64,000 nt of DNA. Origin: Ruminococcus flavefaciens. Its GTDB lineage: Bacteria; Bacillota; Clostridia; Oscillospirales; Ruminococcaceae. The stretch is taken from the NCBI GenBank assembly GCA_015067005.1, contig SVNH01000007.1, forward strand, positions 41,410 through 105,409, in the 5' to 3' direction. A program made the translations under genes and the position numbers. The notes beneath the pieces were generated by a model. The model did no database searches. It had not been told where the DNA came from and worked only from the letters and a program-made list of their open reading frames with translations. Positions 48,056 to 60,326 of this stretch are shown here, in pieces; positions within the stretch are counted from its first letter, which is position 1, and each line of letters opens with the position of its first letter.

Positions 48056-48242
48056 TTTCCTCCTTTTTGGATTTGATTGTTTGCGTACCAAAATAGAAAC
48101 CGATTATCATCGTGTAAACTGACATAAAAATCTGCGGTTCTATTTCGCCGCATACTGCAAGATATGTAAAAGCGCCGGTCAGCGTGAATGTGACCAGCGT
48201 TTTTACGTCTATTAACTTAGCAAGCCTGTCCTTAATTTTCAT
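48042..48242 (-). CDS. holin (two TM helices, charged C-terminus)
   Basis: 66 aa: LVTFTLTGAFTYLAVCG and IFMSVYTMIIGFYFG helices, KSKKEENEND tail. It overlaps the endolysin start. Confidence 0.7.
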   Translation of the reverse strand: MKIKDRLAKLIDVKTLVTFTLTGAFTYLAVCGEIEPQIFMSVYTMIIGFYFGTQTIKSKKEENEND

Positions 48243-48450
48243 GTTCCAAGTCCTCCAATCTGTGGTTGATGACCTTGATCTGCTCCTCGACTACCGGCAG
48301 GCGCTGCGCGAAGTGATTGTGCTCCGCGACACGGTTTTCAAGCTGCTGCAAGCGGTAGTTCGTAAGCTTCGAGCTGACGAGGATACCGCCAAGCGAGCCT
48401 CCAAGAGTGCCGACAAGTGAAAGCATTGCGACTATGATGTTTGTGTCCAT
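48232..48450 (-). CDS. holin-like membrane protein (N-terminal TM + coiled coil; BhlA/UviB-like)
   Basis: 72 aa: IIVAMLSLVGTLGGSLGGILV TM helix followed by a heptad-rich segment. It overlaps the holin start. Confidence 0.55.
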   Translation of the reverse strand: MDTNIIVAMLSLVGTLGGSLGGILVSSKLTNYRLQQLENRVAEHNHFAQRLPVVEEQIKVINHRLEDLEHEN

Positions 48451-48467
48451 TACTTTGCCTCATTTCT

Positions 48468-49043
48468 TTATAAATCATTGTAAAAATAACGTTGCTGAAC
48501 TCCGTAGTGACGTACACCGTCTATTTCGATATAAGGTTTTACAACTGCACCAAGACCGTCTCCGCGGTTGTCATTAATCATAGATGTTACACTCATCGAA
48601 TTATCTAAGCCTATGTCTCCATCGCAGTTTTCGGTTGTTATTTCGGTATTGTATGGGAACGAGCGCGCTGCCAAAAAACCAGTTCTTGTAACAACTCCAC
48701 TACCACTATAATAACTTGTAGCTGTAAAGCGTATTCTATATGGATTATCAGTTTGTTTTTCGACTTCCGATATTTCTGCATATCCTACATACGCCATAAA
48801 TGTGCGGAGTAGCGTAATATCAGATGTGTTAGCAGCTATCTGAGCCACCTTCGCACTGTCGATTCCGCTGTTCACGGCAGCGAGCTGAAAAGTGGTGAGA
48901 GCGTCCTGCTTACTTTCGATTGCATCCACATTATCTTTCAGCGCTTCATCTATGGTGTCTGCGTTATCGTTGAGTTGCTCGATTAATATAGGATCATCTG
49001 TGCCGGGCTTAATCAGCCCATAATTAGTTGTCGATGTTGGCAT
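48468..49043 (-). CDS. phage tail fibre / receptor-binding-like protein
   Basis: The N-terminal TTNYGLIKPGTDDPI motif is common at phage fibre N-termini. It sits between the tail endopeptidase-like gene and the lysis cassette. Confidence 0.45.
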   Translation of the reverse strand: MPTSTTNYGLIKPGTDDPILIEQLNDNADTIDEALKDNVDAIESKQDALTTFQLAAVNSGIDSAKVAQIAANTSDITLLRTFMAYVGYAEISEVEKQTDNPYRIRFTATSYYSGSGVVTRTGFLAARSFPYNTEITTENCDGDIGLDNSMSVTSMINDNRGDGLGAVVKPYIEIDGVRHYGVQQRYFYNDL

Positions 49044-50328
49044 ATTTCTGCACATCCTTCCATGTGTATTTTGCTACCTCTCCCCACTTATAGGCGGCAG
49101 CTCCACCCCAAGTTCTGAGCGCTCGGAGCGTCATATCACTGAGCTGTGTGTTGATAGCAATGATTTCTTTGTCAGCAGGAGTATCTCCGCTGCTGACTGT
49201 TTCAGACATAAACGTTCTGCGTGTGATCGCGCCCTTGAAACTGCCGATCTGGATCTCCATAGTCCTTTGAGCGACAGCGTCAAAGCGCTTGCTGATGATT
49301 TCGAGGTTCGAGTAGTAGATGTCAAGGTCGCTATGATACACCGTTATCCTATCGCCTACCTCAAAGCTGTCGAGATCTATATACTGCCTGTACTTTTCGA
49401 GGTCTGACAGGTTAGCAAAGCGCACTGTAATGTTGATTTTTGACTGCTTGTGCTCATCGAAATAGGCTTGTGCATCCGCATGGAACTGCTGCACATTTTT
49501 TGTGTCATAGTTAAATCGTGCATATCCGTAGATGTGATGCGGTATAGCCTGCGTTGGAACATCAGGATTGCTGATCGTGTAGGTATTTCCGAAGTTGTCC
49601 TCTGCTTTCAGAATTGTTATCAGCTGCGAGTCATCTTCCTCGAATTCAATTTCCGTCATGTTGTAGCTGTACATGATAACACCGGATTTTCGGCAGTTCT
49701 CCATTTCTGAATTCAACGAAAAATAGTTGCCGTGCCGGTATAGCCTTCCGCCCCAGCGATTGACAAATGCTTGATCTACGCCAAGCAGTGCAGATACTAC
49801 ATTGCAGTTCTGATAGTACGCAGTTGCTGTCTTGACGATGTCTGAAGAGTACGTGAAATCGTTTGAAAAACTGCCGTACCAGCCGTGAGAGAAAAGCCAG
49901 TCCAGTGCCGCTTGCCCTTTTAGTGCTGTCGGGCGGCAGTCCTGTATAAGATAGCGTGAAATGTCGTAGAATCGGTGCTGTGCTATTGCTGTGATACGAT
50001 AGTTTCCGTAACTATCCATTTTTCGCGTTACCTGACGGACACGAAATTCCTCGTTTATCAACTCACCGTGATAGTGTATAGGAATTTTGACTTGCGCCTG
50101 CTTTTTCAAATAGCTGAACTTTTGATACTTGTCGCAGTATGTCTCGAAGGTTGCCTCATATGTACCGTTTTCTTCGTGATAGACCTCACAGCTGATAGGT
50201 TCGAGGATAGCGTATCCGTTGCCGGACATCTGCTTGTCACGGCTGTCGTATACGTGTATCATAGGGCGCGGAGGCTGTAATTCCATTGTCGGCGGCTGCA
50301 TTTTCGGAATTAATGGACTGTATATCAT
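49024..50328 (-). CDS. siphovirus tail endopeptidase / minor structural protein (Prophage_tail-like); 5' end uncertain
   Basis: MIHVYDSRDKQ..GYAILEPISCEVYHEENGTYEATFE.. matches the usual N-terminus of tail-associated lysins. None of the three candidate ATGs (50328, 50286, 50262) has an SD, which fits a deletion junction just upstream. Confidence 0.6.
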   Translation of the reverse strand: MIYSPLIPKMQPPTMELQPPRPMIHVYDSRDKQMSGNGYAILEPISCEVYHEENGTYEATFETYCDKYQKFSYLKKQAQVKIPIHYHGELINEEFRVRQVTRKMDSYGNYRITAIAQHRFYDISRYLIQDCRPTALKGQAALDWLFSHGWYGSFSNDFTYSSDIVKTATAYYQNCNVVSALLGVDQAFVNRWGGRLYRHGNYFSLNSEMENCRKSGVIMYSYNMTEIEFEEDDSQLITILKAEDNFGNTYTISNPDVPTQAIPHHIYGYARFNYDTKNVQQFHADAQAYFDEHKQSKINITVRFANLSDLEKYRQYIDLDSFEVGDRITVYHSDLDIYYSNLEIISKRFDAVAQRTMEIQIGSFKGAITRRTFMSETVSSGDTPADKEIIAINTQLSDMTLRALRTWGGAAAYKWGEVAKYTWKDVQKYANIDN

Positions 50329-50348
50329 GCCGTTATTAGTTACGCCGT

Positions 50349-50519
50349 CTACACGCCAGAGGATGTCTGGATAGCGTCAAGCTGCTTGATCTCAGCTTCG
50401 ATTTCGTCAAACTTCTTTGTCTCCTCATCGGTAAATGCTCTGTTCTCGGTCTTGACCGCTTCCAGCATGGAATTGAGGAGAGCCACAAGTCCGGCTCTTC
50501 TTTCGATAAAATTTTTCAT
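50349..50519 (-). pseudogene. 5' fragment (delta-domain only) of an HK97-fold major capsid gene
   Basis: MKNFIERRAGLVALLNSMLEAVKTENRAFTDEETKKFDEIEAEIKQLDAI is the typical capsid N-terminal coiled coil. The ORF stops after 56 codons, 20 nt before the tail gene. GGAGG SD upstream of ATG 50519. Confidence 0.7.
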
Positions 50520-50556
50520 TATTTTTTCCTCCATTTCGTTATTTGGATATAAAAAT

Positions 50557-50594
50557 AGCGCCTGCGACCGACATTCTTGTCGGTTGCAAACGCT
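50557..50594 (-). terminator. conserved long hairpin plus U-run immediately upstream of the capsid fragment
   Basis: Minus strand: AGCGTTTGCAACCGAC-AAGAAT-GTCGGTCGCAGGCGCT-ATTTTTATA. It is homologous at the stem base to 51998-52033. Confidence 0.55.
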
Positions 50595-50610
50595 TTTTAA
50601 CGTATTAGGT

Positions 50611-50664
50611 GTGCAGTTGACTGCACAGATGGGTATAAGAAAACCGCCTAATTACTTAGACGGT
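50611..50664 (-). repeat. 54-nt repeat, copy 1 (terminator hairpin + 18-bp palindrome)
   Basis: 53/54 identical to 56009-56062. Minus strand: ACCGTCTAAGTAATTAGGCGGT-TTTCTTATACCCAT-C-TGTGCAGTCAACTGCACA. Confidence 0.9.
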
Positions 50665-50856
50665 TTAATCGTTATTCGATTCGCCCCATGTGCTTACATG
50701 ATCCTTGCACTTTTTGCATATTTCCTTGTAGTTAGGCTTGACCTTGAATTCGTTGGGAATATACGACTCGTTCCCGAACATCTCATCAACAACATCGGTT
50801 ATTACAAGGCAATCACCCGGTTCAATTTCATCATCAATAAGTGGGCATTTGGCCAT
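50665..50856 (-). CDS. small Cys-containing protein, immunity-like partner of cassette 2
   Basis: 63 aa. AAGGAG SD 8 nt upstream of the ATG. It starts 5 nt after the stop of the 50862-51386 ORF and is followed directly by 54-nt repeat copy 1. Confidence 0.5.
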   Translation of the reverse strand: MAKCPLIDDEIEPGDCLVITDVVDEMFGNESYIPNEFKVKPNYKEICKKCKDHVSTWGESNND

Positions 50857-50861
50857 TTATA

Positions 50862-51386
50862 TCACTCCTTTTCCTTCAAGTGCTTATTTACAGTATCGAG
50901 TATCCTATCAGTTCCGGGGTTAAACTCTTTTTTTGGGAATGATGTTCTTATGAGATTTTTGGTAATATTAACATACGTTGCACCTTTATCACCATAATAG
51001 TTCTCAAACTCTTCGCCTTCTATAACTTTCGTTACAGAAATTTTCGCGTTTTTTATATACTGTCTTGCACTTTTGAGATTGACATCATGGTTTTCGTCCA
51101 TTATATGCTTTTTATCAAAGCCAAGACTATCCACGTCGATCTCTCTTGGCGGTATATGAATCTCGCCATTGAAATTTGTTGACTTGAAATCAGCTATAAT
51201 CTCTTCCTTATGTTCAATTATAGCATCTTTTTCGGATTTGTCAACCTTTTTCTTAGTCTTTGCACCGCCGTTGCTGTAAAGGCGCGGAGTTTTGCCGCCT
51301 GCTCCTCTGGAAGAACCTCCGCCTTCATCACCGATCAGGATATGCCGTCCATTTCTGGTGATCCATCCGCGAAGTTCAATTGCCCT
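50862..51386 (-). CDS. effector-like ORF (cassette 2) with no start codon of its own, in frame with the protease TGA
   Basis: Manual translation from the codon after TGA 51387-51389: RAIELRGWITRNGRHILIGDEGGGSSRGAGGKT...KKKVDKSEKDAII...GFDKKHIMDENHDV...IRTSFPKKEF..*. The first ATG/GTG/TTG is only at 51134. The N-terminal 45 aa are paralogous to 56292-56840. Confidence 0.5.
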   Translation of the reverse strand, partial: RAIELRGWITRNGRHILIGDEGGGSSRGAGGKTPRLYSNGGAKTKKKVDKSEKDAIIEHKEEIIADFKSTNFNGEIHIPPREIDVDSLGFDKKHIMDENHDVNLKSARQYIKNAKISVTKVIEGEEFENYYGDKGATYVNITKNLIRTSFPKKEFNPGTDRILDTVNKHLKEKE

Positions 51387-51968
51387 TCACTCGTAATCGA
51401 GCATTTTCAGCCTGTTCTCATACTCGGTATAGTCAGGCTTGTTCTCAATATAGAGTTCCGGCTCGATGTCAAGTCCGCGCTGTTCGATGTCAATATCTTC
51501 TCCGGCTCTGCACTCAACTGAGGTCGCTGCATAACACGGGACCTTATCCTTTATGAGAGACACATGGTCAAGCAGGAAGCCCTTTACATGGCGTATCGGT
51601 AATTCATCAGTGCCTCTGCTTTCCATTTCATCCTGTACGTTGTACATTCCGAACGACCAGCCTCTCAGCTTACCCTTACGCGCCATCTCTATTACCGTTT
51701 CGTCTGTGATAAGAGTCTCGGCATGAAGACCGATAGCATCCTCTCTAAGAGTAAGTGTATTATCTCTTGTGCTCGCATAGGCGTGTCCCTTGTCATGGTC
51801 AAGAGTTACCGTTACTTCTCCGCTGTTCTTGATCGCCTCAGAAAAGGCTCTTTCCTCGATAGTTTCAATGACCTTTCCTCGCGGCGTTATTACAGGGCGT
51901 GAACGCTTTCCGGTAACGTTTACGTATCCGCTGATATGCAGACCGTCCGCTCTTACTTCGATTTTCAT
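51387..51968 (-). CDS. HK97-family prohead protease (S78)
   Basis: MKIEVRADGLHISGYVNVTGKRSRPV...VTLDHDKGHAYAST..LREDAIGLHAE. The start is set at ATG 51968 with a GGAAGTGA SD. Confidence 0.75.
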   Translation of the reverse strand: MKIEVRADGLHISGYVNVTGKRSRPVITPRGKVIETIEERAFSEAIKNSGEVTVTLDHDKGHAYASTRDNTLTLREDAIGLHAETLITDETVIEMARKGKLRGWSFGMYNVQDEMESRGTDELPIRHVKGFLLDHVSLIKDKVPCYAATSVECRAGEDIDIEQRGLDIEPELYIENKPDYTEYENRLKMLDYE

Positions 51969-51997
51969 TCTTTCACTTCCTTTTAGGTATAAAAATA

Positions 51998-52033
51998 GCA
52001 CTTGCAACTTAGTTTCAAACTTGTTGCAAATGC
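51998..52033 (-). terminator. conserved hairpin plus U-run immediately upstream of the protease gene
   Basis: Minus strand: AGCATTTGCAAC...GTTGCAAGTGCT-ATTTTTATAC. It shares the stem base and tail with 50557-50594. Confidence 0.5.
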
Positions 52034-52045
52034 TTGTAAGCGGTA

Positions 52046-52279
52046 TTAAAGATCGATGCGAGCCAGTTCAGCACGAAGCTCCAGTATGTGAAGATATTCG
52101 CCCATAACGGTCTGCTGCTTTTTCAGAAGCGCCCTGCTGTACATATCTTCCGGCTCTTCTGCAACGTCTTTGAGCAGATAGGCTTCAACTTCCTGCTTGT
52201 TATTATAGACTTTCAGTTTCTCATATCGTTCCTTTGTCTGAGCGTACTCAGCTTTCAGCCTGTCCTTCCAGTCATCCAT
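52046..52279 (-). CDS. small conserved phage protein (crAss001_48-like helical protein)
   Basis: MDDWKDRLKAEYAQTKERYEKLKVY...LLKKQQTVMGEYLHILELRAEL. GGAGGTGA SD upstream of ATG 52279. Confidence 0.5.
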   Translation of the reverse strand: MDDWKDRLKAEYAQTKERYEKLKVYNNKQEVEAYLLKDVAEEPEDMYSRALLKKQQTVMGEYLHILELRAELARIDL

Positions 52280-52303
52280 TCCCTCACCTCCTTCAAATGG
52301 GCA

Positions 52304-52332
52304 TAAAAAAACCGCCCTCATTGAGAACGGTT
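52304..52332 (-). terminator. intrinsic terminator ending cassette 3
   Basis: Minus strand: AACCGTTCTC-AAT-GAGGGCGGTT (two G-U pairs) followed by TTTTTTATG. It abuts the stop of 52332-52526. Confidence 0.55.
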
Positions 52333-52526
52333 TAATTAATTATTTCGAGACTTTTTATTTCAGATTGAAGATAATATTGACCATTTGTTAAGCCAATGAT
52401 AGGCTCATCGTATCCACTGTCATCCTCTGTCTCATATAAATCAGCGACAGCAATAATTTCATTATCATCACTATCGACAAGCTTAACCTTTTTGCCCAAT
52501 GCATCATATAAGCTAACCATGTTCAA
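52332..52526 (-). CDS. small acidic protein, immunity-like partner of the portal-borne toxin domain (cassette 3)
   Basis: 64 aa. The ATG overlaps the portal stop by 4 nt (ATGA). Confidence 0.5.
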   Translation of the reverse strand: MNMVSLYDALGKKVKLVDSDDNEIIAVADLYETEDDSGYDEPIIGLTNGQYYLQSEIKSLEIIN

Positions 52527-54277
52527 TCTCCTTCAATAGGTGCCGACGGAACTAAATGAGTCCCTTTTTTTGAATAATGAATGGTTGCGCGATGTGTAGG
52601 AATATATTTTCCTGTTCTCAAATCACCAAACATTCCGATATTTTCTTTTAGCGAAATAGTCTCTCTAAATTGTCCATCTTGTCCTTTACGGACTTTGCCA
52701 GTGAGTGAATAAGTATTAATAATTTTTTGAATTTCCATATTGCTCATTTCAGTATAGCTTGGCATTCTCCCTTCAGCTATACGCTTCAAATACTCAGCCG
52801 AGTCTTTCTTATGAGCTAATTGAGCTTTTTTATCAAGCTTTGTGACAATTTTACCGTCAGCAATAGCCTTTTCAAGTTCTTTTTTATTCTTTTCAAAGTC
52901 AATTATATCACTTTTCTCAGTTTTGTCAACCTTTTTCGCTGATTTTCCGCCGCTTTTTGAACTGTCTCCGGACTTGCCGCCGTTATTGCCGCCGGTGCTG
53001 CCGTTCATTTTGCCGTTTGGAAGCTGTATGTACTCCCTGAGTTCCATACCGTCTGCTCTCTCTTCGCCTGTTTTCAGATTCTTAGTCTGTCCTGTATTCG
53101 GCGTGAATACGTCCATTGTCTCGGGATTGAGGAGAACATCCTGCAAGCCAAGCTTAATGAAGTTGAAGCCGAGCGGTTCATAGTCCTCTTCGCGGCGTAT
53201 TTCATCCACCTGAAGAATGTTATTCCGGACAGCGATCTCGTAAGCATCATAACGTTCCTTTAAGCTGCCGCGTGTGAGTTCCTTCGTGTCGAATGCCCAG
53301 TAGTACCCCTGCTCCTTCTCGGATTCCAGCAAAAGAACGTTGTCGAGCTCAGTCTCGATCTGATTGATTATTGATATTACTGCCGCTATAAACTTCTTGT
53401 TATCGTCCTCGGTAGCTCCGCCGTCAATGACCGTGTGAGGGAAGCCAAACAGCTTACAGATCTCGATGCTGTTGGTCTTCTTGTTCTCGTTCATCTGGAG
53501 TTCTGCCGCCGTTGATGATATAGCCTCGAAGTCTATTCCGTCATTGAGCACAAGTATTTTCTCCCGATTGTCCTCATTGTCGTATACCCGCGCATATCCT
53601 TCCTTGATAGATGCAATAGCAGCGTCCGAGAGACGGTTCTTCGACTTCAAAAAGCCGGGCTTACATCCGCCGTTGGAGTTCATCATGTTCTCAAGTTTCA
53701 GAGAGTTCCACGCTGCGGACAGTATCGCGGAAGCTTCCTTCTGCAACGGTATATTGGTATAGCCGTCTCTGGTCTTTCTCAGGAGCTTAATGAACTGAAA
53801 ATCATAGTAAGTGACCGCATTTATCTGCACACGAAACGCCTTGAAGATAGGATCCTGATTACACAGATAACTCACATTGGTGCTGTCGACATAATTCAGG
53901 CTTTTTGTATTCAAACCGTCACTGTTGACGTATATCCATGCACCGCCGCCGAGGTAATAGTCCTCGATAGCCGCCTTCCACATATCTACTGTGCTGAGTG
54001 TATCGCCGGTATTGCCGTTGAGCAGCTTAATACGCGGATCATCGTATATTTCGGTGACCTCTTCCTCGTCACGCTTGTATAGCTTCACCGGAAGCTGCGA
54101 AATCGTATCACCTATCTTGTTGATACAAGCAGATACAGTCGGTATGCTTATCGCTGCCTCTCTGGTGAGTTCTCCAGTAATACCGAAGAATGTCAGTATT
54201 GATGTCTCAGCTCCTGACGGAGTATCCGCTCTTATTTCCTGCTTCTTTTTCCTTCTGAAAAGTCCTATTTTGAACAC
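52523..54277 (-). CDS. phage portal protein (HK97-type) fused to a C-terminal polymorphic-toxin-type-50-like domain
   Basis: Residues 1-405 are portal-like (IPTVSACINKIGDTISQLPVKLY...). Residues 411-460 are the shared linker ELREYIQLPNGKMNGSTGGNNGGKSG..KKVDKTEKSDII. Residues ~484-580, QLAHKKDSAEY...LTGKV..G..RE.I....IG......T....IHYSKKGTHLVPSAP, match my recollection of Ntox50 domains at MuF C-termini. GTG start. Confidence 0.7.
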   Translation of the reverse strand: MFKIGLFRRKKKQEIRADTPSGAETSILTFFGITGELTREAAISIPTVSACINKIGDTISQLPVKLYKRDEEEVTEIYDDPRIKLLNGNTGDTLSTVDMWKAAIEDYYLGGGAWIYVNSDGLNTKSLNYVDSTNVSYLCNQDPIFKAFRVQINAVTYYDFQFIKLLRKTRDGYTNIPLQKEASAILSAAWNSLKLENMMNSNGGCKPGFLKSKNRLSDAAIASIKEGYARVYDNEDNREKILVLNDGIDFEAISSTAAELQMNENKKTNSIEICKLFGFPHTVIDGGATEDDNKKFIAAVISIINQIETELDNVLLLESEKEQGYYWAFDTKELTRGSLKERYDAYEIAVRNNILQVDEIRREEDYEPLGFNFIKLGLQDVLLNPETMDVFTPNTGQTKNLKTGEERADGMELREYIQLPNGKMNGSTGGNNGGKSGDSSKSGGKSAKKVDKTEKSDIIDFEKNKKELEKAIADGKIVTKLDKKAQLAHKKDSAEYLKRIAEGRMPSYTEMSNMEIQKIINTYSLTGKVRKGQDGQFRETISLKENIGMFGDLRTGKYIPTHRATIHYSKKGTHLVPSAPIEGD

Positions 54278-54283
54278 TTCCTT

Positions 54284-55798
54284 TCATATTATCTGACAGC
54301 CGAAGCCCTGATCCATGTTATCGAGAACGTTTACCTGCAAAAGGAACAACGCATTTATAACTGATACTACCATATCGACCTTGCCGGCAGACTTCTTTTT
54401 GTTGACATACTGATTGAGGTTAGTATCCTGTGTACAGCGTGAGTTCTCGAAGTTTATCTCAAGCATCTGGTTTTCTTCATACCTGAACTTCTGACTGAGA
54501 ATATATTCTTTCAGCAGCTTTGTCGGACGATGAAGGGCGCTGGAATGCTGCTTGATCTCAACACATTCGATAGGCTCTTCTCCACTTTCATGTTTCTGAA
54601 CCGTAGATATAGCATTGTACCGGTCGAAACCTAACTGCACGATCTCCACACCGTATTTCTCCGGAAGTGACTGTATGAACCGCTCAACAAAGCCGTAATC
54701 TATGACTTCATCACCGCAGGCGAAGCAGTCACCATTGGAAATAAGTTTATTGTAGTTCACTTTTTCCTTCTGTGATTTCTTTTCTATGCTGTCAGCCGGA
54801 ATAAAGCCCCACACCTTTACATATATCAGATCCTCGATTTCGTCATATGCTGCCATAGCGACCGAAGTATTATCATCGGTCTGTGACAGATCAAGTCCGA
54901 TATAGACCTGCCTGCCACTCCAGAATCCATTATCTTTCGGAGCTTTACATAGCCTGACCTTCGTTATATCCACAAAGCCCTCAACTCCGAGTCCCTTGTA
55001 GAGAATGTTCATATGCTTGCACAGGAAATTCGGGCGGCTGTTCTCATAAAGGATGGCTTCCTGCCGCTTTTTCAGGAGTTCGGCAAACATATAGTCGTGT
55101 GCATAAGCCGCAGGATTTGCCTGATAAAGTGCAATGTCCGAGGTTTGCCAAATATCGCCTGTCTTAAACTCATCGTCCGGTTCATACAGCAGTGAGAAGC
55201 GTTTCTCATAGTCGTTCAGACCGTCAAGCGCCTTCTTTGACTTGTCGATTTCATCTATCATTGCATTATTATCGTTCGGATACTGCGTTGATATGATGAT
55301 ACCAAGCTTCTCTCTGAGTGCTATCTGCGATGAGCGCATAGCTTCAATGGGATAATTATCCATATCGCCGCACTCGTCAGCAAGGAACATATTCGCCTGT
55401 TTACCGTCAAGCCTGTCCTGAGAATACGCAAGAGGAGTAAACTCTGACTCTGTCAGCTTGCAGCGCACCTCCTTACGCATCAACTTGAATATCTTCTCGT
55501 CAGCTATGTAAGGACTTGATTTTATTATCTTCTTTACAGCATTGTGCAGCTCGCTTGACAGCTTCAGGTCAGGAGCTACACTGAAAAAGCGACTGAACTG
55601 TGGCTCTGTCAGGAGACCGATAATAAAAATGACCGCAGACGTGAACGTTTTGAAGTTCTTACGTGCGATCTCTAAAAGCCCTGTCTCATAATACCGCAGA
55701 TTATCACTCCTGCGCTTAGTACAAAACAGAGCATATATAAACAATACTGCATAATCTTCAAGTCCCTCGTACATTGAGTGACCGAGATCCGGGTGCAT
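54284..55798 (-). CDS. terL: terminase large subunit, possibly degenerate
   Basis: Terminase_1-like: LEIARKNFKTFTSAVIF (Walker-A position reads F where G is expected), FLADECGDMD. The frame stays open and homologous for 63 more codons up to ATT 55987 (IDIVKDSRAYKYALWCAESDNHYVGRYVKRQAEQW), with AAAGGAG 10 nt upstream, but there is no ATG/GTG/TTG there. Confidence 0.7.
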   Translation of the reverse strand: MHPDLGHSMYEGLEDYAVLFIYALFCTKRRSDNLRYYETGLLEIARKNFKTFTSAVIFIIGLLTEPQFSRFFSVAPDLKLSSELHNAVKKIIKSSPYIADEKIFKLMRKEVRCKLTESEFTPLAYSQDRLDGKQANMFLADECGDMDNYPIEAMRSSQIALREKLGIIISTQYPNDNNAMIDEIDKSKKALDGLNDYEKRFSLLYEPDDEFKTGDIWQTSDIALYQANPAAYAHDYMFAELLKKRQEAILYENSRPNFLCKHMNILYKGLGVEGFVDITKVRLCKAPKDNGFWSGRQVYIGLDLSQTDDNTSVAMAAYDEIEDLIYVKVWGFIPADSIEKKSQKEKVNYNKLISNGDCFACGDEVIDYGFVERFIQSLPEKYGVEIVQLGFDRYNAISTVQKHESGEEPIECVEIKQHSSALHRPTKLLKEYILSQKFRYEENQMLEINFENSRCTQDTNLNQYVNKKKSAGKVDMVVSVINALFLLQVNVLDNMDQGFGCQII

Positions 55799-56008
55799 GA
55801 TAAGCTTCAGAAGCTTTGTTATCTTCTTCCAGCGTTTCTCGCAGACGTATGCTGCGGCATTTTTACCGTTGACGACAGCGAGCCACTGCTCCGCCTGCCG
55901 TTTGACATACCGTCCGACATAGTGATTATCAGACTCTGCACACCACAGAGCATACTTGTATGCCCGGCTGTCCTTTACTATGTCAATTCTCAGTCAGCTC
56001 CTTTCTCT

Positions 56009-56062
56009 GTGCAGTTGACTGCACAAATGGGTATAAGAAAACCGCCTAATTACTTAGACGGT
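56009..56062 (-). repeat. 54-nt repeat, copy 2
   Basis: 53/54 identical to 50611-50664. It overlaps the last 4 codons and stop of 56050-56295 and lies directly upstream of the TerL SD. Confidence 0.9.
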
Positions 56063-56295
56063 AATCTGTCTTTATTCTGTTCGATAAGGTCATAGATATA
56101 GTCAGGAAGAGTACCGTTTTTCCACTGTTCGCGGTGCTGATTTTGGCTTCTATGATTGCAGCCTCCCTTATAGTCAGGATCTTCACGCTGAATAAGATCA
56201 TCAAACCAACCGCAAATAGGGCATAAATCAAAACTGTCCTTTTCTTCGAAATAGAACTGTCTGCAAACAGGACAAATCAAGTTTTCATCTTTCAT
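56050..56295 (-). CDS. Cys-rich CPCC-type small protein, immunity-like partner of cassette 1
   Basis: 81 aa: LICPVCRQFYFEEKDSFDLCPICGWFDD. The ATG overlaps the stop of 56292-56840 by 4 nt. Confidence 0.6.
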   Translation of the reverse strand: MKDENLICPVCRQFYFEEKDSFDLCPICGWFDDLIQREDPDYKGGCNHRSQNQHREQWKNGTLPDYIYDLIEQNKDRLPSK

Positions 56296-56840
56296 TCCTT
56301 TACACCTTCTGCTTTCTCGAAACGCTTATAGTATTCAACGCCTTCTCTTGGCTTAAACAAGGTTATTAGCCCTTTGTTAACATTTGCCTTAACATAGTCG
56401 TTTTTCTTGACATCATAACGGCAGATATGGCCTTCTTTGGTCTTATAACCTAAGATTTTCTTTCCGTCAGCAGCACTTTCAGCAAGCTCTACGCCCCGCT
56501 TTTCATATTGCTCTTTGGTCGTTATACCGTCAGGCTTGTATTCTTCAGCGTGTGTTCTGCCGTTCTGCCAGTGATTATTCAGCTTCTGCTTGCTTGGAAA
56601 GCCCTTTTTCCTAAGTTCATTCTTACCAGTAGCAGATACTTCCTCTGGCTTTATTATACCACTTTTCGCGGATTTGTCAATACTCTCGCCTGCTCCGCTG
56701 GAAGAACCTCCTCCGTCATCTCCGATCAGGATTTGCCTTCCGTTTTTAGTTATCCAGCCGCGAAGCTCAAGCCTGTGAGTTTCTATATCTATTGCTCTGA
56801 GTACGTGCTCGGCATAATCTATGAACCACTCCCTGCTCAC
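56292..56840 (-). CDS. effector-like protein (cassette 1): shared ELRGWIT linker + nuclease-toxin-like C-terminal domain
   Basis: GTG start with an AAGGAG SD 10 nt upstream. N-terminus ..IDYAEHVLRAIDIETHRLELRGWITKNGRQILIGDDGGGSSSGAG. C-terminus NNHWQNGRTHAEEYKPDGITTKEQYEKRGVELA..ILGYKTKEGHICRYDVKKNDYVKANVNKGLITLFKP. Confidence 0.6.
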   Translation of the reverse strand: MSREWFIDYAEHVLRAIDIETHRLELRGWITKNGRQILIGDDGGGSSSGAGESIDKSAKSGIIKPEEVSATGKNELRKKGFPSKQKLNNHWQNGRTHAEEYKPDGITTKEQYEKRGVELAESAADGKKILGYKTKEGHICRYDVKKNDYVKANVNKGLITLFKPREGVEYYKRFEKAEGVKE

Positions 56841-57096
56841 CTCTGCTCGTCTCCTTCGTTATCTTCGACATAGTTCATGCCCCTTTCAATCGTTATAGAA
56901 TGTGAGCCAAGAAACTTATTACTGCTCTTGTAAAAAAGCCAATAATAAACCATTTCCAAAATATCGATGCATAGTTTGTCTTCTTTCCTGCCGTACCAGT
57001 TGCGGCAGGATTTTTCATTTCCTGCTCCTGCTCTTCCTTTTCCACTCCTCCCCCTCCTTTCCTTTATCGCTGTGAGTGATTGCTTTTGGTTAGTTT

Positions 57097-57112
57097 GTCG
57101 CATTTACGCGAC
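57097..57112. promoter_or_regulatory. operator-like near-palindrome (second copy)
   Basis: TTTGTCGCATTTACGCGACT shares TTTGTCGCAT-N4-GCGACT with the site at 57338-57353. Confidence 0.4.
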
Positions 57113-57173
57113 TGTATCGCTAAAAAAAATTGATGTTGCTTCATCATAATTAAGAGAAAGAACCTCGATAAGT

Positions 57174-57317
57174 CTATCCGCTTCTCTTATCGTAAAATGA
57201 ATTGTTCTTCATTTTACGATAAAAAGTAGCCGGATTGATGCCTATATCAGCGGATACACATTCAACATTCTTGCCTTTTTCAACTATCTTTGCTTTTAAC
57301 TTTTGAACATTAAGCAT
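57174..57317 (-). CDS. Cro/excisionase-like small HTH protein
   Basis: 47 aa from ATG 57317 (AGAGGTGA SD): MLNVQKLKAKIVEKGKNVECVSADIGINPATFYRKMKNNSF. It diverges from the CI-like repressor gene. Confidence 0.6.
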   Translation of the reverse strand: MLNVQKLKAKIVEKGKNVECVSADIGINPATFYRKMKNNSFYDKRSG

Positions 57318-57337
57318 TGTATCACCTCTTGTCCTTT

Positions 57338-57353
57338 GTCGCATATATGCGAC
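57338..57353. promoter_or_regulatory. operator: perfect 16-bp palindrome in the switch region
   Basis: GTCGCATATATGCGAC lies between the leftward -10 box and the cro-like start. Confidence 0.55.
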
Positions 57354-57365
57354 TTTCTTGATATT

Positions 57366-57394
57366 ATAATACCACGCTCTCAAACGTTTGTCAA
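57366..57394 (-). promoter_or_regulatory. leftward (lytic) promoter
   Basis: Minus strand: TTGACA, 17 nt, TATTAT, with an overlapping TATAAT 3 nt further downstream. Confidence 0.55.
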
Positions 57395-57444
57395 TACCTT
57401 TTCGCACTTTTTGAGATTTTTTTTGTAAAGTTACATTTTCTCTA

Positions 57445-57473
57445 TTGCATTTTTGCGAATATCGTGTTATAAT
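57445..57473 (+). promoter_or_regulatory. rightward (repressor) promoter
   Basis: TTGCAT (57445-57450), 17 nt, TATAAT (57468-57473). Confidence 0.6.
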
Positions 57474-57502
57474 ACAAAAAACAGAAAAGTTGGTGATAGA
57501 TA

Positions 57503-58156
57503 ATGACTATTGGTGAAAGAATAAAGCAACGACGCAAAGAGCTTGGCTTGTCAGTCGATGAACTCGCTGAAATGCTCCATAAAAATCGTGCTACTATATA
57601 CAGATATGAAAGTAACGAAATTGAAAAGCTTCCAACCACTGTATTAGAACCATTAGCAAAAGCATTAGGTGTTACTCCAGCATACCTTATGGGTTGGGAA
57701 ATAGAACTCCGAGCTGTTGATCCTTTCGATGAACTTTACGCAAAATACGACAACATCAAGCCCATAAAGATGAAGCGCTTTCCGATGCTGGGCGAGATAG
57801 CCTGCGGAGAGCCTGTCTTTGCTGATGAAGATAAGGAACACTATATTATGGCAGATATGGATATCAACGCCGATTTCTGCCTTACCGCAAAGGGCGATAG
57901 CATGATTAACGCCCGTATATATGAGGGGGATATCGTTTTTATAAAGGAAATGCCTATGGTTGAAAACGGCGAGATCGCAGCTGTTATCATTGAGGATGAG
58001 GCTACGCTCAAACGTGTTTACTATTACAAAGAAGACAACCTGCTCCAGCTCGTTGCTGAGAACCCGAAGTATAAGCCTCTCGTCTATCAGAATGAGGATC
58101 TTGACCGCATACGCATCCTCGGCAAGGCGGTCTATTTTATGAGCGCGGTGGAATAA
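57503..58156 (+). CDS. CI/LexA-like phage repressor (XRE HTH + S24 peptidase)
   Basis: HTH: IKQRRKELGLSVDELAEMLHKNRATIYRYE. S24 domain: AKGDSMINARIYEGDIVFIK...ATLKRVY. Confidence 0.85.
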   Translation: MTIGERIKQRRKELGLSVDELAEMLHKNRATIYRYESNEIEKLPTTVLEPLAKALGVTPAYLMGWEIELRAVDPFDELYAKYDNIKPIKMKRFPMLGEIACGEPVFADEDKEHYIMADMDINADFCLTAKGDSMINARIYEGDIVFIKEMPMVENGEIAAVIIEDEATLKRVYYYKEDNLLQLVAENPKYKPLVYQNEDLDRIRILGKAVYFMSAVE

Positions 58157-58167
58157 GGAGGTAGCTT

Positions 58168-58740
58168 ATGAACATATACACGATAATAGGCGGAGTAAAC
58201 GGCGCAGGCAAGAGCAGTCTTTCCGGTGTTCTGACGGCTGAGAACTCAGACCTCGGTATCATCATCGACACCGACAAGCTCAATGCTTCATTCGGCGGCG
58301 ACCGCATAAAGGGCGGCAAGGCTGCAATAGCTCTGATAGATGACTGTCTCAGCAAACGTATAAACTTCACTCAGGAGACCACTCTCTCAGGCGTGAGAAC
58401 ACTGAAAACCATACAGAAAGCCCGTGAGCTCGATTACTTCATAAGACTTTACTATGTAGGCATCAGCTCCGCAAATGAGAGTATCAAGCGCATTAAGAAC
58501 CGTGTTGAAAAGGGCGGTCACGATATACCGTCCGCTGACGTTGAAAGACGTTACCTCAAGCGCTTTGATGACCTTGCAAAGGTGCTTCCCTACTGCAACG
58601 AGGTCAGATTTTTCGACAACGAGAACGGATTTGCAGAAAAAGCTGAGTACCGCAACGGTCAGCTCATAACCAAAGGCGGAGATATACCGCAGTGGCTCAC
58701 AGAGCTGAGAAAATATCTGGATAAAGGGGCAGAGATATGA
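58168..58740 (+). CDS. zeta-toxin-like P-loop kinase/ATPase (COG4185-type)
   Basis: Walker A IIGGVNGAGKSS; 190 aa; RVEKGGHDIP segment. AAGGAGG SD; starts 12 nt after the repressor stop. Confidence 0.65.
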   Translation: MNIYTIIGGVNGAGKSSLSGVLTAENSDLGIIIDTDKLNASFGGDRIKGGKAAIALIDDCLSKRINFTQETTLSGVRTLKTIQKARELDYFIRLYYVGISSANESIKRIKNRVEKGGHDIPSADVERRYLKRFDDLAKVLPYCNEVRFFDNENGFAEKAEYRNGQLITKGGDIPQWLTELRKYLDKGAEI

Positions 58741-59138: not shown

Positions 59139-59190
59139 AATTCCCCCTGCCAAAAAACAGGAGTTCAAACCATAAAAGAGCTGATACAAC

Positions 59191-60204: not shown

Positions 60205-60244
60205 AATAATCCCCCGCCGGTGCTGGAACACTAACGAGGGATAT

Positions 60245-60294
60245 GGACGTGCTATCACACATCACAACAATGTAATTATAGCACGTCCTTCTTG
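60245..60294 (+). terminator. possible terminator between the cargo genes and the integrase gene
   Basis: GGACGTGCTAT...ATAGCACGTCC 11-bp stem (22-nt loop) followed by TTCTT. Confidence 0.35.
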
Positions 60295-60326
60295 AAATGT
60301 CAAATTTTAGGAAGGTGGATTGAAAT

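Follow-up and report, generated by a model that had tools for sequence, protein, structure and literature searches.

A predicted portal–Ntox50 protein as an allele within a polymorphic toxin system of HK97-like temperate phages from rumen and gut Ruminococcus

In nuclease colicin operons and in CDI and Rhs loci, a constitutive promoter for the immunity gene lies inside the toxin gene, and orphan toxin–immunity cassettes are found. Most of what is known of toxins riding on head proteins of phages concerns MuF and comes almost wholly from sequence surveys, and the question of how a lysogen is immune while its structural operon is silent was previously left open. Toxin fusions to head proteins, including portals, have already been published: PBECR RNase, 2H, InPase, Nudix and ART domains are reported joined to MuF, portal and capsid-processing serine peptidase proteins, with packaging and injection inferred (PMC5512222, PMC9503650). 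Since the portions of these surveys (Iyer et al. 2017, 2022) drawn on here report such fusions, the idea of a portal–effector fusion is itself already in the literature. Here, we describe a locus in a 64,000-nucleotide stretch of Ruminococcus flavefaciens DNA (the whole stretch analysed, hereafter the window), whose sequence points to a bipartite virion protein, a full HK97-type portal tethered flexibly to an Ntox50 (BECR-fold) toxin. Judged by its relatives, this portal–Ntox50 protein is one allele of a polymorphic toxin system of HK97-like temperate phages from rumen and gut Ruminococcus.

Portal core and Ntox50 domain

The gene and its immediate surroundings contain the following features.

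54284..55798, minus strand: large terminase (Pfam TerL_ATPase and TerL_nuclease)
53063..54277, minus strand: complete HK97-type portal core, residues 1–405 (PF04860, TIGR01537, Foldseek, relatives)
52931..53062, minus strand: pre-linker module (ELREYIQLPNGKMNGS) and Gly/Ser/Lys-rich linker, residues 406–449 (AF2 pLDDT, relatives)
52902..52929, minus strand: match to the sigma-70/sigma-A consensus promoter, TTGACA-16 nt-TG-n-TATAAT, on the sense strand (12/12, extended -10)
52526..52900, minus strand: Ntox50 BECR RNase toxin domain, residues 460–584 (Pfam, PDB sequence match, AF2, Foldseek)
52811–52813 (H489), 52577–52579 (H567) and 52547–52558 (H574-L-V-P), minus strand: catalytic residues, together with K570 (alignment to YxiD-CTD)
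52332..52520, minus strand: candidate cognate immunity gene, 62 aa, pI 4.05 (sequence, family co-occurrence, phrog_1865)
52309..52333, minus strand: intrinsic-terminator-like hairpin (AAACCGTTCTCAATGAGGGCGGTTT, then a T-run) at the cassette end (sequence)

The large terminase has about 60 more conserved in-frame codons upstream, without a canonical start. The ORF at 52523..54277 (minus strand, GTG start) encodes a 584-aa protein of three parts, an HK97-type portal (residues 1–405), a disordered Gly-rich linker (406–459) and an Ntox50 BECR RNase domain (460–584). Pfam Phage_portal (PF04860) matches residues 46–365 over its entire profile (1–321 of 321, E 2e-45), the NCBIfam equivalog portal_HK97 (TIGR01537) matches with E 1e-45, and Foldseek searches with the predicted portal body retrieve HK97 portal 8fql_A and other HK97-type portals. 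Together with a position between TerL and the prohead protease, the full-length profile match and the portal fold place the protein in the HK97 portal family. The original prediction held that the portal fold is complete by about residue 405, and this stands because natural portals of 410–415 aa stop at that point, ending at ...TGEIN or ...TGEERAxxx (the equivalent of residue 405–412); GenBank phage portals align to residues 1 to ~410 only. The C-terminal extension that it placed at 52523..53062 is real and corresponds exactly to residues 406–584 plus the stop codon. Its expectation of two separate domains was likewise borne out by structure prediction: in the full-length AF2 model, a portal-like body, modelled with moderate confidence only, and a YxiD-CTD-like C-terminal domain (pLDDT ~90–92) fold separately, joined by a disordered stretch with pLDDT <50 at residues 404–458.

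Ntox50 (PF15542, gathering cut-off 22.2 bits) matches residues 483–577 with 58.5 bits in the full protein, and the extension scanned on its own scores 61.7 bits (E 1.2e-16), well over threshold, which confirms the proposed Ntox50-like identity. In an exhaustive search, 149 of the best 150 matches were likewise Ntox50. The residue signature H, S, K, T, H, K, HxVP described for Ntox50 (Zhang 2012) is found in residues 460–584. The motifs named in the original prediction are also real: in AQLAH489KK and IH567YSK570KGTH574LVP, the numbered residues align with His447, His521, Lys524 and His528, which are catalytic in YxiD-CTD, and H574-L-V-P577 aligns with its HxVP motif. YxiD K446 is aligned to Ala488; KK, however, comes after H489. 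Among 150 cluster representatives, Q486, H489, G527, T561, H567, H574 and P577 each lie in columns conserved in at least 90%. In PDB, the toxin domain matches YxiD-CTD (9v8i) by sequence with E 2.4e-8 and is 32% identical to 9v8i_B. The AF2 model of the domain (pLDDT 92) has four helices followed by a six-strand sheet, the alpha+beta arrangement of the BECR fold, and Foldseek matches it to 9v8i_B with E 8e-9, TM 0.80 and rmsd 2.2 Å, followed by 8hhj_B (MafB2-CT) and CdiA-CT 5e3e. For YxiD-CTD, tRNA cleavage and toxicity have been demonstrated, and the His triad, Lys and HxVP are required (PMC12700104). RNase activity of the portal-borne copy is predicted from these correspondences.

Two known families were considered and rejected. 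The protein is not a PBECR/polyvalent protein (Iyer et al. 2017), as PBECR1 gives a non-significant match to the 584-aa protein (E 0.83, 10.6 bits, cut-off 27.6) and there is a single effector domain. Nor is it a member of the MuF toxin family (Jamet et al. 2017), because no MuF domain (PF04233, PF06152, MuF3, MuF4) was found in the portal or in the other Pfam-scanned proteins of the window, although its function would be MuF-toxin-like. The statement that Ntox50 normally sits on MuF proteins holds in so far as MuF domains are the commonest carriers (37 of the best 150 Ntox50 cluster representatives), but portals, with 15 of the 150, are not rare.

Partner gene, allelic variation and predicted promoter

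The original prediction described a downstream acidic ORF of 64 aa that overlaps the portal stop by ATGA. The ORF is indeed small and acidic, but there is no ATGA overlap and 62 aa is better supported: the junction reads ...GGAGAT TGA AC ATG G..., with the ATG at 52520, two bases past the portal stop, and an AAGGAG ribosome-binding site 7 nt upstream. An alternative TTG start, overlapping the portal stop as TTGA, would give 64 aa. Gene callers report 62 aa for all close homologues (at least 68% identity) except one 56-aa entry, and the most remote homologue has 65 aa. The ORF has no match in Pfam, NCBIfam or PDB. Its family follows nine of nine non-redundant Ntox50 portals (45–100% portal identity to the window), and its HMM also matches the ORF behind the MuF-Ntox50 gene in two cultured phages, SN8 of Staphylococcus (E 2e-10) and Javan291 of Streptococcus (E 2e-4). 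Its position and family distribution suggest that the 62-aa protein neutralises the toxin. A terminator-like hairpin lies behind 35 of 41 partner ORFs in related loci, compared with 12 of 230 control windows.

A total of 1418 portal homologues were found. Close relatives carry C-terminal Ntox50, DUF4258, ART, PF15644, JAB-like and several unknown types of domains, and five of them (P0012, P0018, P0020, P0025 and P0027) share 96–100% identity with the window protein in the core but only 10–20% in the toxin. P0012 is 99% identical in the core, 100% in the pre-linker and 20% in the toxin, whereas P0018 combines a 100% identical core with a 51% identical pre-linker, which marks a recombination breakpoint at GEERA/ELR; the pre-linker of the 584-aa protein is one of at least six interchangeable modules among relatives. 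The 46 non-redundant extended portals fall into 14 toxin clusters. An ORF of at most 130 aa follows 41 of these 46 compared with 3 of 43 short portals (Fisher p 4e-16), and toxin and partner clusters correspond with an ARI of 0.95, reached by none of 20000 permutations. Orphans, either cassettes or immunity genes, are present in L016, L007/L033, L009, L046 and L126–L131, and in decayed cassettes the toxin gene is broken with the immunity gene intact. A constant carrier with a variable toxin, a co-varying downstream partner and orphan cassettes are features of polymorphic toxin systems as understood by Zhang et al. 2012. Thus, the extension is variable and accompanied by a co-varying small ORF; neither of the outcomes that would have spoken against the original prediction, an extension without a toxin-family match or one conserved throughout the clade without a small ORF, was observed.

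The codons between linker and toxin translate as V450-D-K-T-E-K-S-D-I-I459, an instance of the conserved linker peptide VDKxEKxxII, and that this peptide spells a perfect sigma-A promoter appears, as a sequence match, to be new here. Promoters were scored against the Bacillus/E. coli consensus, the sigma-A specificity of Ruminococcus being assumed equal. Three 12/12 sites occur in 47000–58200, all within the three cassettes of the window (see below). In related loci, 43 of 44 distinct linker versions selected by peptide have 12/12 hexamers and 42 of 44 the TG extension, counts that are not independent events because the copies share descent; of 52 perfect promoters in 1.18 Mb of these loci, 40 lie inside linkers. 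The best match in 1.2-kb portal cores reaches 8–9/12 only. No promoter was found in a clade that has a C-terminal extension but lacks the partner ORF, six of 41 extended portals with a partner ORF score below 11/12, and the MuF-Ntox50 genes of three cultured phages have a weak match (10/12) or none at the equivalent place.

The 28-nt sequence could instead be a recombination joint or a protein motif, for example a protease cleavage site, with the promoter match as a by-product. It separates tether from toxin, as one would expect of a processing site, and one breakpoint falls exactly within it, P0012 being the same up to KKVDK and unrelated beyond. However, a joint or peptide motif should not fix hexamers, TG and synonymous sites yet leave the 16-nt spacer free, and this is the pattern seen: synonymous sites of the hexamers are fixed while the spacer varies, and bases are kept though amino acids shift, changes being limited to hexamer-preserving ones (V/I/L, all NTT; G/D/A, all GNT). 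Distant clades arrive at the same hexamers through other peptides (LTxExxxxIL, LPxExxxxII), and presence of the motif follows that of the downstream partner ORF and terminator. A mere by-product is very unlikely, and the two roles are compatible, as the same 28 nt can serve as both promoter and joint. We predict that the linker sequence is an active promoter. Between it and H489 there is no in-frame ATG, GTG or TTG; because no start codon precedes the catalytic His489, its transcript would give no active toxin.

Further cassettes, the prophage remnant and a proposed mechanism

Two additional cassettes (50610..51386 and 56008..56840) lie within the same prophage remnant, on either side of the packaging genes. 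Neither these cassettes nor the remnant state nor the linker promoter figured in the original prediction.

47276..61436, no strand assigned: prophage remnant of ~14 kb, from integrase to GH25 endolysin
60327..61436, plus strand: integrase
57503..58156, plus strand: CI/S24 repressor
47276..48091, minus strand: GH25 endolysin
51387..51968, minus strand: prohead serine protease (S78), 193 aa, with the tail ...YENRLKMLDYE followed by TGA (stop 51387–51389; Pfam PF04586)
50862..51386, minus strand: cassette 2, toxin part of 174 codons (RAIELRGWITRNGRHILIG, Gly linker, promoter, toxin without recognised fold), in frame after the protease TGA
50665..50856, minus strand: cassette 2, partner ORF of 63 aa (element 50610..50856; family also after the same toxin type)
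50610..50664, minus strand: cassette 2, terminator/hairpin element of 55 nt, repeat D3 (98% identity)
56292..56840, minus strand: cassette 3, toxin gene of 182 aa with GTG start (leader of ~27 aa (SREWFIDYAEHVLRAIDIETHRLELR), GWITKNGRQILIG, Gly linker, promoter, toxin without recognised fold)
56050..56295, minus strand: cassette 3, CPCC-family partner ORF of 81 aa (element 56008..56295; Pfam PF14206, E 4e-13)
56041..56062, minus strand: cassette 3, terminator-like hairpin within repeat D3 at 56008..56062 (sequence, repeat)

Cassette 2 directly follows the protease TGA, in frame and without a start codon; the protease is likewise called as 193 aa on an identical contig. Its promoter (51217..51244) matches 12/12, and its toxin, which has no match in Pfam or PDB, shares 85–88% identity with the C-terminal domains found on portals P0140, P0048 and P0049; the partner family recurs in L034 and L099 behind portals that bear this toxin type. 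Cassette 3, with its promoter at 56653..56680, is of a gene type found between TerS and TerL in many related phages. Its toxin shares 93% identity with the domain at the C-terminus of portal P0064, and a CPCC ORF follows this type of toxin on six non-redundant portals. The remnant lacks TerS, HNH, connectors, tail tube and tape measure, and 61 codons of the capsid gene are left (50349..50534); intact relatives have capsid and tail genes. It is unable to make capsids, and the toxin in the window may never be expressed at all. As a 14-kb remnant without a capsid gene, it would therefore probably function through its immunity units, the three promoter–immunity units likely still working and making the remnant an immunity island.

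The best explanation overall, which we consider likely, is that the portal–toxin is an allele of a system of swappable promoter–toxin–immunity–terminator cassettes with delivery by the capsid. Domain identities, polymorphism, toxin/partner co-variation, promoter and terminator signatures and the remnant state are its established components. The swapped unit would have four parts, namely, a sigma-A promoter in linker codons, a toxin-domain sequence, an immunity gene with its own ribosome-binding site and an intrinsic terminator, exchanged by recombination at conserved joints (GEERA/ELR, the promoter motif and the terminator). In the packaging module, cassettes are found at three sites: the portal 3' end, the small leader-bearing gene between TerS and TerL, and the position right after the prohead protease. 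During lytic growth, the late operon would yield the portal–toxin, restrained by the immunity protein, and each capsid would receive twelve copies; the original prediction placed these at the DNA exit channel, and we infer a position at the portal crown, inside the capsid, where the portal C-terminus lies. Cleavage would probably separate the toxin within the linker, with EERA, the end point of natural short portals, as a possible site, and the freed toxin would depart together with the DNA when the next cell is infected. Delivery into another cell is suggested by the kind of proteins that act as carriers, and MuF toxins, T4 Alt and the T4 internal proteins are the models from which packaging, cleavage and ejection are extrapolated. 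From the internal promoter, the immunity gene would be transcribed constitutively in lysogens and at once when phage DNA enters a cell. As this transcript would supply immunity and no active toxin, cells that carry or accept the phage would therefore be protected and others poisoned. Such a self-contained cassette would explain host immunity while the phage structural genes are silent. Against this explanation, terminators in the middle of a late operon require read-through by late transcription, and no antitermination mechanism was identified.

A more specific scheme, with three routes of capsid loading, two of which would rely on the capsid-targeting tail of the prohead protease, seems to us rather doubtful. 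In addition to portal fusions (12 copies per virion), small genes between TerS and TerL would be loaded through a leader of ~27 aa derived from the C-terminal tail motif of the protease (PDYSDYExRL...ELR) and acting as a cargo-loading peptide, and startless post-protease cassettes would be expressed by low-level TGA read-through as a minor protease–tether–toxin fusion, the dose being set by the leakiness of the stop. With the antidote produced from the cassette promoter on incoming DNA, this device, its poison in the capsid and its antidote on the genome, would penalize cells destroying or silencing entering phage DNA. In favor of the scheme, all post-protease cassettes seen (window, L009, L046, L126–L131; two junction sequences, four toxins) are in frame behind TGA, and P0246 is an uninterrupted protease–Ntox50 fusion found elsewhere. 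Moreover, the leader of some toxin genes contains the protease-tail motif DYSDYERRL, and a protease-tail HMM ranks those of P0255 and P0258 first among its non-protease matches (E ~1e-3), though it gives no significant match to the local leaders. Against read-through, TGA is the commonest protease stop in any case (20 of 34), most post-protease junctions are of common ancestry, and the toxins there are sometimes frameshifted or deleted with the immunity gene intact.

The strongest competitor of the cassette explanation, possible though on the unlikely side, is that the injected domain is a takeover or anti-defence effector acting at the start of infection, for example by transient tRNA depletion, and is turned off later by its partner. 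Iyer et al. (PMC5512222, PMC9503650) favour this reading for head-packaged effectors, and Jamet et al. (PMC5576092) include it among their two models; if the incoming DNA brings a strong constitutive promoter, the antidote would be made early. However, an antagonistic toxin/immunity arms race between lineages accounts better than a housekeeping takeover function for diversifying allelic replacement with strictly cognate partners, for orphan cassettes and for the survival of copies that have immunity alone, and close portal relatives do without any extension. Takeover and weapon roles share the delivery mechanism of the cassette explanation, and the present evidence does not separate them. It is quite unlikely that the toxin and its partner act purely inside the producing cell, as a module without export (addiction/TA, abortive infection or superinfection exclusion, stabilising the prophage), the portal fusion being incidental or a means of toxin sequestration. 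The antidote does adjoin the toxin under its own predicted constitutive promoter, cassettes survive in remnants unable to make virions, and classical TA systems also contain BECR RNases (PMC3482391). Yet the toxin is joined only to capsid-internal proteins (portal, MuF, prohead protease) or to a protease-tail-like leader, its full-length form is obtainable from the late structural operon only, decay removes the toxin and keeps the immunity gene, the opposite of what an addiction module predicts, and high allelic diversity with cognate partners is a hallmark of toxins exchanged between cells. Finally, although the prophage is degraded and the AF2 portal body is of limited confidence, an artefact (assembly error, frameshift, pseudogene read-through) or a purely structural crown/barrel extension without enzyme function is scarcely credible, being contradicted by the identical 584-aa protein in the same remnant on eight contigs from different samples, by intact portal–Ntox50 ORFs on dozens of independent contigs (45–87% portal identity), by the conserved catalytic residues and by the confidently predicted toxin fold.

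Across a large group of Ruminococcus phages, uncultured and from rumen and gut, the portal, an essential protein, can thus act as a polymorphic carrier. The consensus promoter in the linker codons and the terminator of each cassette offer a concrete answer to the question of lysogen immunity, and the linker peptide provides a clean example, relevant to the reading of linker conservation, of an apparent protein motif whose conservation would in fact reflect a signal in the DNA. The cassettes also suggest why tiny remnants with packaging-gene fragments persist, namely, as immunity islands against the toxins of related phages. If capsid loading and read-through are true, the system would represent a natural cargo-loading system for HK97-type capsids and a new kind of competition, mediated by phages, within the rumen microbiome.

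Comparison with known systems

The closest parallel is with MuF toxins (PMC3482391, PMC5576092), which are likewise head-internal virion proteins of temperate Firmicutes phages and remnants, with variable C-terminal toxins that include Ntox50. In both systems, a small ORF follows the toxin-bearing and not the short forms (89% versus 25% in Jamet et al., 89% versus 7% for the portals here), and a partner of the 62-aa type stands behind MuF-Ntox50 in phages SN8 and Javan291. By contrast, the carrier here is the portal itself, no MuF gene was found between portal and protease in the relatives read, and 12 copies per virion are expected compared with the one or two reported for SPP1 gp7. Jamet et al. 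2017 (PMC5576092) mention neither promoters nor orphan cassettes. Compared with the fusions of Iyer et al., Ntox50 is a BECR clade other than PBECR; the portions of those surveys drawn on here treat the fusions as phage effectors and describe neither allelic replacement with cognate immunity genes nor cassette-borne promoters and terminators or orphan cassettes.

The same Ntox50/BECR domain is found in YxiD-YxxD of B. subtilis 6633 (LXG/T7SS, PDB 9v8i) and MafB2-CT/MafI2 of N. meningitidis (PDB 8hhj). These toxins are delivered through LXG/T7SS and MafB, whereas the carrier of the portal–toxin is a virion protein, and their immunity proteins have no sequence relation to the 62-aa ORF. T4 internal proteins and Alt have a capsid-targeting sequence, are cleaved by the prohead protease and are ejected with the DNA, and a segment of the HK97 protease gp4 has served to load GFP into capsids (see also PMC5512222, PMC11626933). 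The likeness lies in a short targeting peptide or head-component fusion that fills the prohead, with release in the next host; the T4 proteins are unrelated in sequence and come without immunity partners, and targeting and cleavage of the portal–toxin are predicted. Finally, as in colicin, CDI and Rhs loci, immunity is predicted to be transcribed apart from the toxin, and startless displaced cassettes are kept downstream and recombined. Here, however, the promoter lies in a conserved inter-domain peptide and moves with each cassette, the carrier genes are structural and essential to the phage, and three different slots of one operon hold cassettes.

Domain organization of the portal–Ntox50 protein

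52523..54277, minus strand: portal–Ntox50 ORF, 584 aa

In Pfam searches, the whole Phage_portal profile (1–321 of 321) matches residues 46–365 of this protein (E = 2e-45) and Ntox50 is found at residues 483–577, while the portal body is named portal_HK97 by NCBIfam and portal by PHROGs. The C-terminal extension, placed by the original prediction at 52523–53062, corresponds exactly to residues 406–584, and its suspected likeness to Ntox50 is borne out by the Pfam scan of the extension by itself, in which Ntox50 reaches 61.7 bits (E = 1.2e-16), above the gathering threshold of 22.2. The sole other nuclease family touching the extension, PBECR1, is not significant (E = 0.83). Natural portal relatives of 410–415 aa end in ...TGEIN or ...TGEERAxxx, and alignments with GenBank phage portals cover only residues 1 to ~410; the portal is thus already complete at residue 405, as had been proposed. 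In the full-length AF2 model, the portal body is moderately confident, residues 404–458 have pLDDT <50 and residues 460–580 reach pLDDT ~90. In Foldseek searches, the portal body matches HK97-type portals (8fql_A, 9lbn_H, 3kdr) and the tail separately matches 9v8i_B, consistent with the expected portal protomer followed by a separate C-terminal domain. Modeled alone, the C-terminal domain (pLDDT 92) has 9v8i_B as its best match (E = 8e-9, TM 0.80), followed by MafB2-CT (8hhj_B). A PDB sequence search with the extension likewise leads to this structure (9v8i, E = 2.4e-8), the C-terminal domain of YxiD (YxiD-CTD). YxiD-CTD is an Ntox50/BECR toxin that cleaves several tRNAs, requires His447, His521, His528, Lys446 and Lys524, and carries an HxVP motif (PMC12700104). 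The residues aligned to its catalytic positions in the window protein are H489, H567, K570 and H574-L-V-P, and these lie within motifs on which the original toxin assignment was based. In a set of 150 Ntox50 cluster representatives, the catalytic-residue columns are at least 90% conserved.

Polymorphic toxins, partner ORFs and putative regulatory signals

The portal has 1418 homologues, and its near relatives, from Ruminococcus of the rumen and gut, have a common sequence, ...PNTGQTKNLxTGEERA. This is followed by a pre-linker module of one of several kinds, a region rich in Gly, and KKVDKSEKxxII. The C-terminal domains that these homologues carry are unrelated to each other and include Ntox50, DUF4258, ADP-ribosyltransferase, PF15644, JAB-like and several domains without an assigned family. 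Portal P0012 is 99% identical to the window protein in the core, 100% in the pre-linker and only 20% in the toxin, and the core of P0018 is 100% identical, with divergence from ELR on. By these comparisons, the window portal–toxin represents a single allele within a polymorphic system. The pre-linker motifs ELRYNHNHDxKGRF, NPNQPRDxxGRW and RGDxWTKGxHGYFTGS, which precede the Gly-rich tether on portals (e.g. in loci L028, L034 and L004), also form the extreme N-terminus of small stand-alone Ntox50 proteins (P0239, P0240, P0250, P0256) and behave as interchangeable modules, which may serve in docking or as cleavage sites.

For analysis of gene neighborhoods, 119 related loci were fetched and reduced to 89 non-redundant portals, with portals considered extended if the extension was at least 90 aa and a partner defined as an ORF of at most 130 aa immediately downstream. 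In line with the original reading, the extension is variable, and such an ORF follows 41 of 46 extended portals but only 3 of 43 short ones (Fisher p = 4e-16). Toxin and partner clusters correspond nearly one-to-one (ARI 0.95, a value reached in none of 20000 permutations). All nine non-redundant Ntox50 portals, despite portal identities of 45–100%, are followed by members of an acidic 61–69-aa family ending in ...EIKSIEI(L/I)D. Furthermore, in two phages with a MuF-Ntox50 gene, Staphylococcus phage SN8 and Streptococcus phage Javan291, the ORF behind that gene matches the HMM of this family (E = 2e-10 and E = 2e-4, respectively), with zero false matches in ~4000 ORFs. Since the toxin–partner pairing is kept across carriers and genera, the 62-aa product is, on the best available evidence, probably the cognate immunity protein. 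Its likely start is ATG 52520, with AAGGAG 7 nt upstream; nearly all close homologues, of which a word-indexed search found at least 25, are also called as 62 aa by gene callers. The reported ATGA overlap with the portal stop is incorrect, as the DNA reads GGAGAT-TGA-AC-ATG. A PDB search found no solved-structure relative of the partner.

A scan of 47000–58200 with the common Firmicutes sigma-A consensus, including the extended −10, identified 27 promoter-like sites, of which three are perfect (TTGACA, 16 nt, TATAAT, TG extension). These three are the three copies of the linker, all in sense orientation (52929->52902, 51244->51217 and 56680->56653), the hexamers being encoded by V-D-K codons (gTTGACAaa) and x-I-I codons (nnTATAATn). 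When linkers were picked from all loci by peptide only, 43 of 44 distinct DNA versions matched at 12/12 positions and 42 had the TG extension. Linker residues vary solely where the bases stay (V/I/L, all NTT; G/D/A, all GNT). At synonymous sites, GTT, GAC and ATA are invariably used, compared with background frequencies of 30%, 54% and 43%, respectively, and spacer codons are free to vary. Related loci totalling 1.18 Mb contain 52 distinct perfect promoters, and 40 of these are linkers. Matches of at least 11/12 lie within the extension in 36 of 46 extended portals, compared with best matches of 8–9 in the 1.2-kb cores, and distant clades reach the same hexamers via other peptides. We infer that the linker motif acts as a promoter, assuming that Ruminococcus sigma-A shares the common Firmicutes consensus. 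Between the promoter and the catalytic His489 there is no in-frame ATG, GTG or TTG, so its transcript would give the immunity protein and not active toxin. The partner ORF of portal–Ntox50 is followed by a terminator-like hairpin (52333->52309), a feature present after partner ORFs in 35 of 41 loci versus 12 of 230 control windows. The cassette unit is therefore composed of promoter, toxin, immunity gene and terminator. At the level of sequence, the domain identities of the toxin cassette, its polymorphism, the co-variation of partners and the promoter and terminator signatures are established.

A more distant group of portals (L072–L074 and L077, ~44% identical) has a C-terminal extension with the P-loop GAPGSGKTTW, possibly kinase- or zeta-toxin-like. 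Neither a small downstream ORF nor a promoter-like site in the extension was found in this clade, which may represent a non-toxic effector class. Three cultured phages with MuF-Ntox50 genes (L137–L139) were also checked, namely, Staphylococcus phage SN8, Streptococcus phage Javan291 and Aeribacillus phage AP45. In two of the three genes, a weaker promoter-like site (10/12, with TG, −10 intact or nearly so) lies over a G-I-I peptide at the start of the toxin domain, and no such site is present in the SN8 gene; accordingly, we do not claim a perfect promoter as general for head-borne toxins.

Additional cassettes and the prophage remnant

The linker recurs twice more in the window, both as DNA repeats and in translation, marking cassettes 2 and 3:

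50862..51386, minus strand: toxin part of cassette 2, without start codon, in frame straight after the protease stop
56292..56840, minus strand: toxin gene of cassette 3, 182 aa, composed of a short leader, GWITKNGRQILIG, linker and toxin

The cassette 3 toxin shares 93% identity with its counterpart at the C-terminus of portal P0064 and is followed by a CPCC-family ORF; on six non-redundant portals, a CPCC partner likewise comes after this toxin. Genes of this type are located between TerS and TerL in many relatives. The junction of the protease with cassette 2 reads ...MLDYE-TGA-RAIELRGWITRNGRHILIG..., the toxin is 85–88% identical to portal C-terminal domains, and its 63-aa partner is the one found after the same toxin type on portals. 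Searches of Pfam, NCBIfam and PDB sequences found no family or structure relative for either toxin. Matches to gp41 do not reflect toxin homology, since they fall only on the leader and Gly-linker (residues 8–46), with no significant domain. A 55-nt repeat (98% identity) is present at 50610–50664 and 56008–56062 on the minus strand and consists of a terminator-like hairpin including the last codons of the CPCC immunity gene (P-S-K-stop), followed by a perfect hairpin, TGTGCAGTTGACTGCACA. Because it is preceded by a different immunity gene, the repeat copy behind cassette 2 resembles a scar left by recombination. In most related loci, the second hairpin is also present ahead of both TerL and the capsid gene; it may have a regulatory function or mark a site of RNA processing.

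The identical 584-aa protein occurs on eight contigs, in the same arrangement. In order, the prophage has genes for integrase, RhuM, a zeta-like protein, CI/S24 repressor, cassette 3 and TerL, then portal–Ntox50 and its partner. These are followed by an ORF resembling crAss001_48, the protease, cassette 2, a 61-codon fragment of the capsid gene, tail endopeptidase and GH25 lysin. Intact relatives have TerS, HNH, the capsid gene, connectors and tail, all of which are missing here, and this copy cannot build virions. The joint of the deletion that removed the head-completion and tail genes is the following junction:

50349-50534, minus strand: truncated capsid gene, first 61 codons only, delta-domain coiled coil
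49024-50328, minus strand: tail endopeptidase gene, 20 nt after the capsid fragment

Several other features of the remnant deserve mention. The 91-aa ORF at 52046–52321 (minus), located between the immunity gene and the protease, belongs to PF21825 (crAss001_48-related; Sequestin in the precomputed annotation); L028 and L029 have it in the equivalent position, and most relatives lack it. Upstream of TerL (54284..55798), ~60 conserved codons (55799–55978, minus) continue its frame before the first ATG; ATG, GTG and TTG are absent from this stretch in the window, L003 and L028, and L034 (the R. flavefaciens SAb67 prophage) has GTG at the equivalent Val. TerL may therefore start at a non-canonical codon (ATT, ATA or CTG) or be shortened. 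The genes at 58168–60204 (plus) for a zeta-toxin-like P-loop protein (190 aa), a 133-aa ORF and a RhuM-family protein adjoin the prophage repressor and integrase and may form a separate defence or toxin–antitoxin module. Rfam and tRNA scans of the window found nothing in the prophage region.

N-terminally truncated portals with Ntox50 and its partner are kept in other remnants, such as L132–L136. This second example of a remnant retaining the cassette adjoins host polysaccharide-degradation genes and has only a 291-aa truncated portal with Ntox50, a 65-aa partner, protease and a few tail and lysis genes. L035 is probably another rearranged remnant, in which the protease ORF (7503–8465) reaches 320 aa via an unrelated C-terminal part and is followed by tail-like genes rather than the capsid gene. 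In intact phages, the toxin of post-protease Ntox50 cassettes is sometimes frameshifted or deleted, with the partner gene intact. Among the intact phage contigs L126–L131, which share the junction EYE-TGA-RAIELRGW, three (L128, L129 and L131) have an intact toxin, two (L127 and L130) a frameshift near its C-terminus and one (L126) an internal deletion. All six retain an intact 62-aa immunity gene, the product of which is present in 47 index blocks of the collection (24 contigs examined). Thus, selection seems to hold immunity units more tightly than toxins.

Possible routes of delivery and relation to known systems

The portal C-terminus is located at the crown, and fusion would place 12 toxin copies there, inside the capsid. 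We propose that the late operon makes the portal–toxin, which the partner protein would neutralise; the tether would then be cleaved, with EERA, the end point of short portals, as a plausible site, and the toxin would leave with the DNA. The cassette promoter would supply antidote in lysogens and from the entering DNA. This scheme follows the model for MuF toxins (PMC5576092) and that for head-packaged effectors (PMC5512222, PMC9503650).

A connection of the toxin cassettes with the protease would be a more speculative route. All post-protease cassettes seen (in the window, L009, L046 and L126–L131) are in frame behind TGA, with two junction types and four different toxins, as might result from TGA read-through. 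The shared ancestry of the junctions argues against this explanation; moreover, TGA is the commonest protease stop (20 of 34), so its constant presence is of little weight and only the reading frame counts. No uninterrupted protease–toxin fusion was found in the close clade, where all top matches cover one half of the artificial read-through query, and longer proteases carry unrelated extensions. A scan of viral contigs for ELRGWITKNG returned four contigs, all already in the locus set, and no extra junctions. An uninterrupted protease–Ntox50 fusion does exist in a distant protein, P0246. Furthermore, two small Ntox50 proteins (P0255 and P0258) begin with the protease-tail motif DYSDYERRL and are the best non-protease matches of the protease-tail HMM when run over all ORFs (E ~1e-3). 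The same HMM gives E = 18 or no match with the local type A–C leaders, and leader–tail homology is therefore only suggestive for the window. Duda et al. are said to have described an HK97 protease targeting domain in 2013, and the GFP-loading segment of this protease is reportedly its C-terminal tail. That an HK97 protease segment can load GFP into capsids is stated in PMC11626933. Capsid loading through the protease tail, or TGA read-through of cassette 2, is a speculative proposal.

Our literature search found no description of a portal serving as carrier of polymorphic toxins that have cognate partners and orphans, of a cassette-borne consensus promoter in a linker peptide with a matching terminator, or of an in-frame post-protease slot. 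No portal with this extension was found among 50,697 GenBank phage records, in which the Ntox50 relatives, among the matches listed, are minor head (MuF) proteins or unannotated ORFs. The fusion itself is of an already-known kind, since MuF toxins are an established family and effector fusions to portal and prohead protease are noted in PMC5512222 and PMC9503650. The best 150 Ntox50 cluster representatives include 37 MuF proteins, 15 portals from two portal families and one prohead protease domain, indicating that portals are not rare carriers of Ntox50 in metagenomic sequence space.
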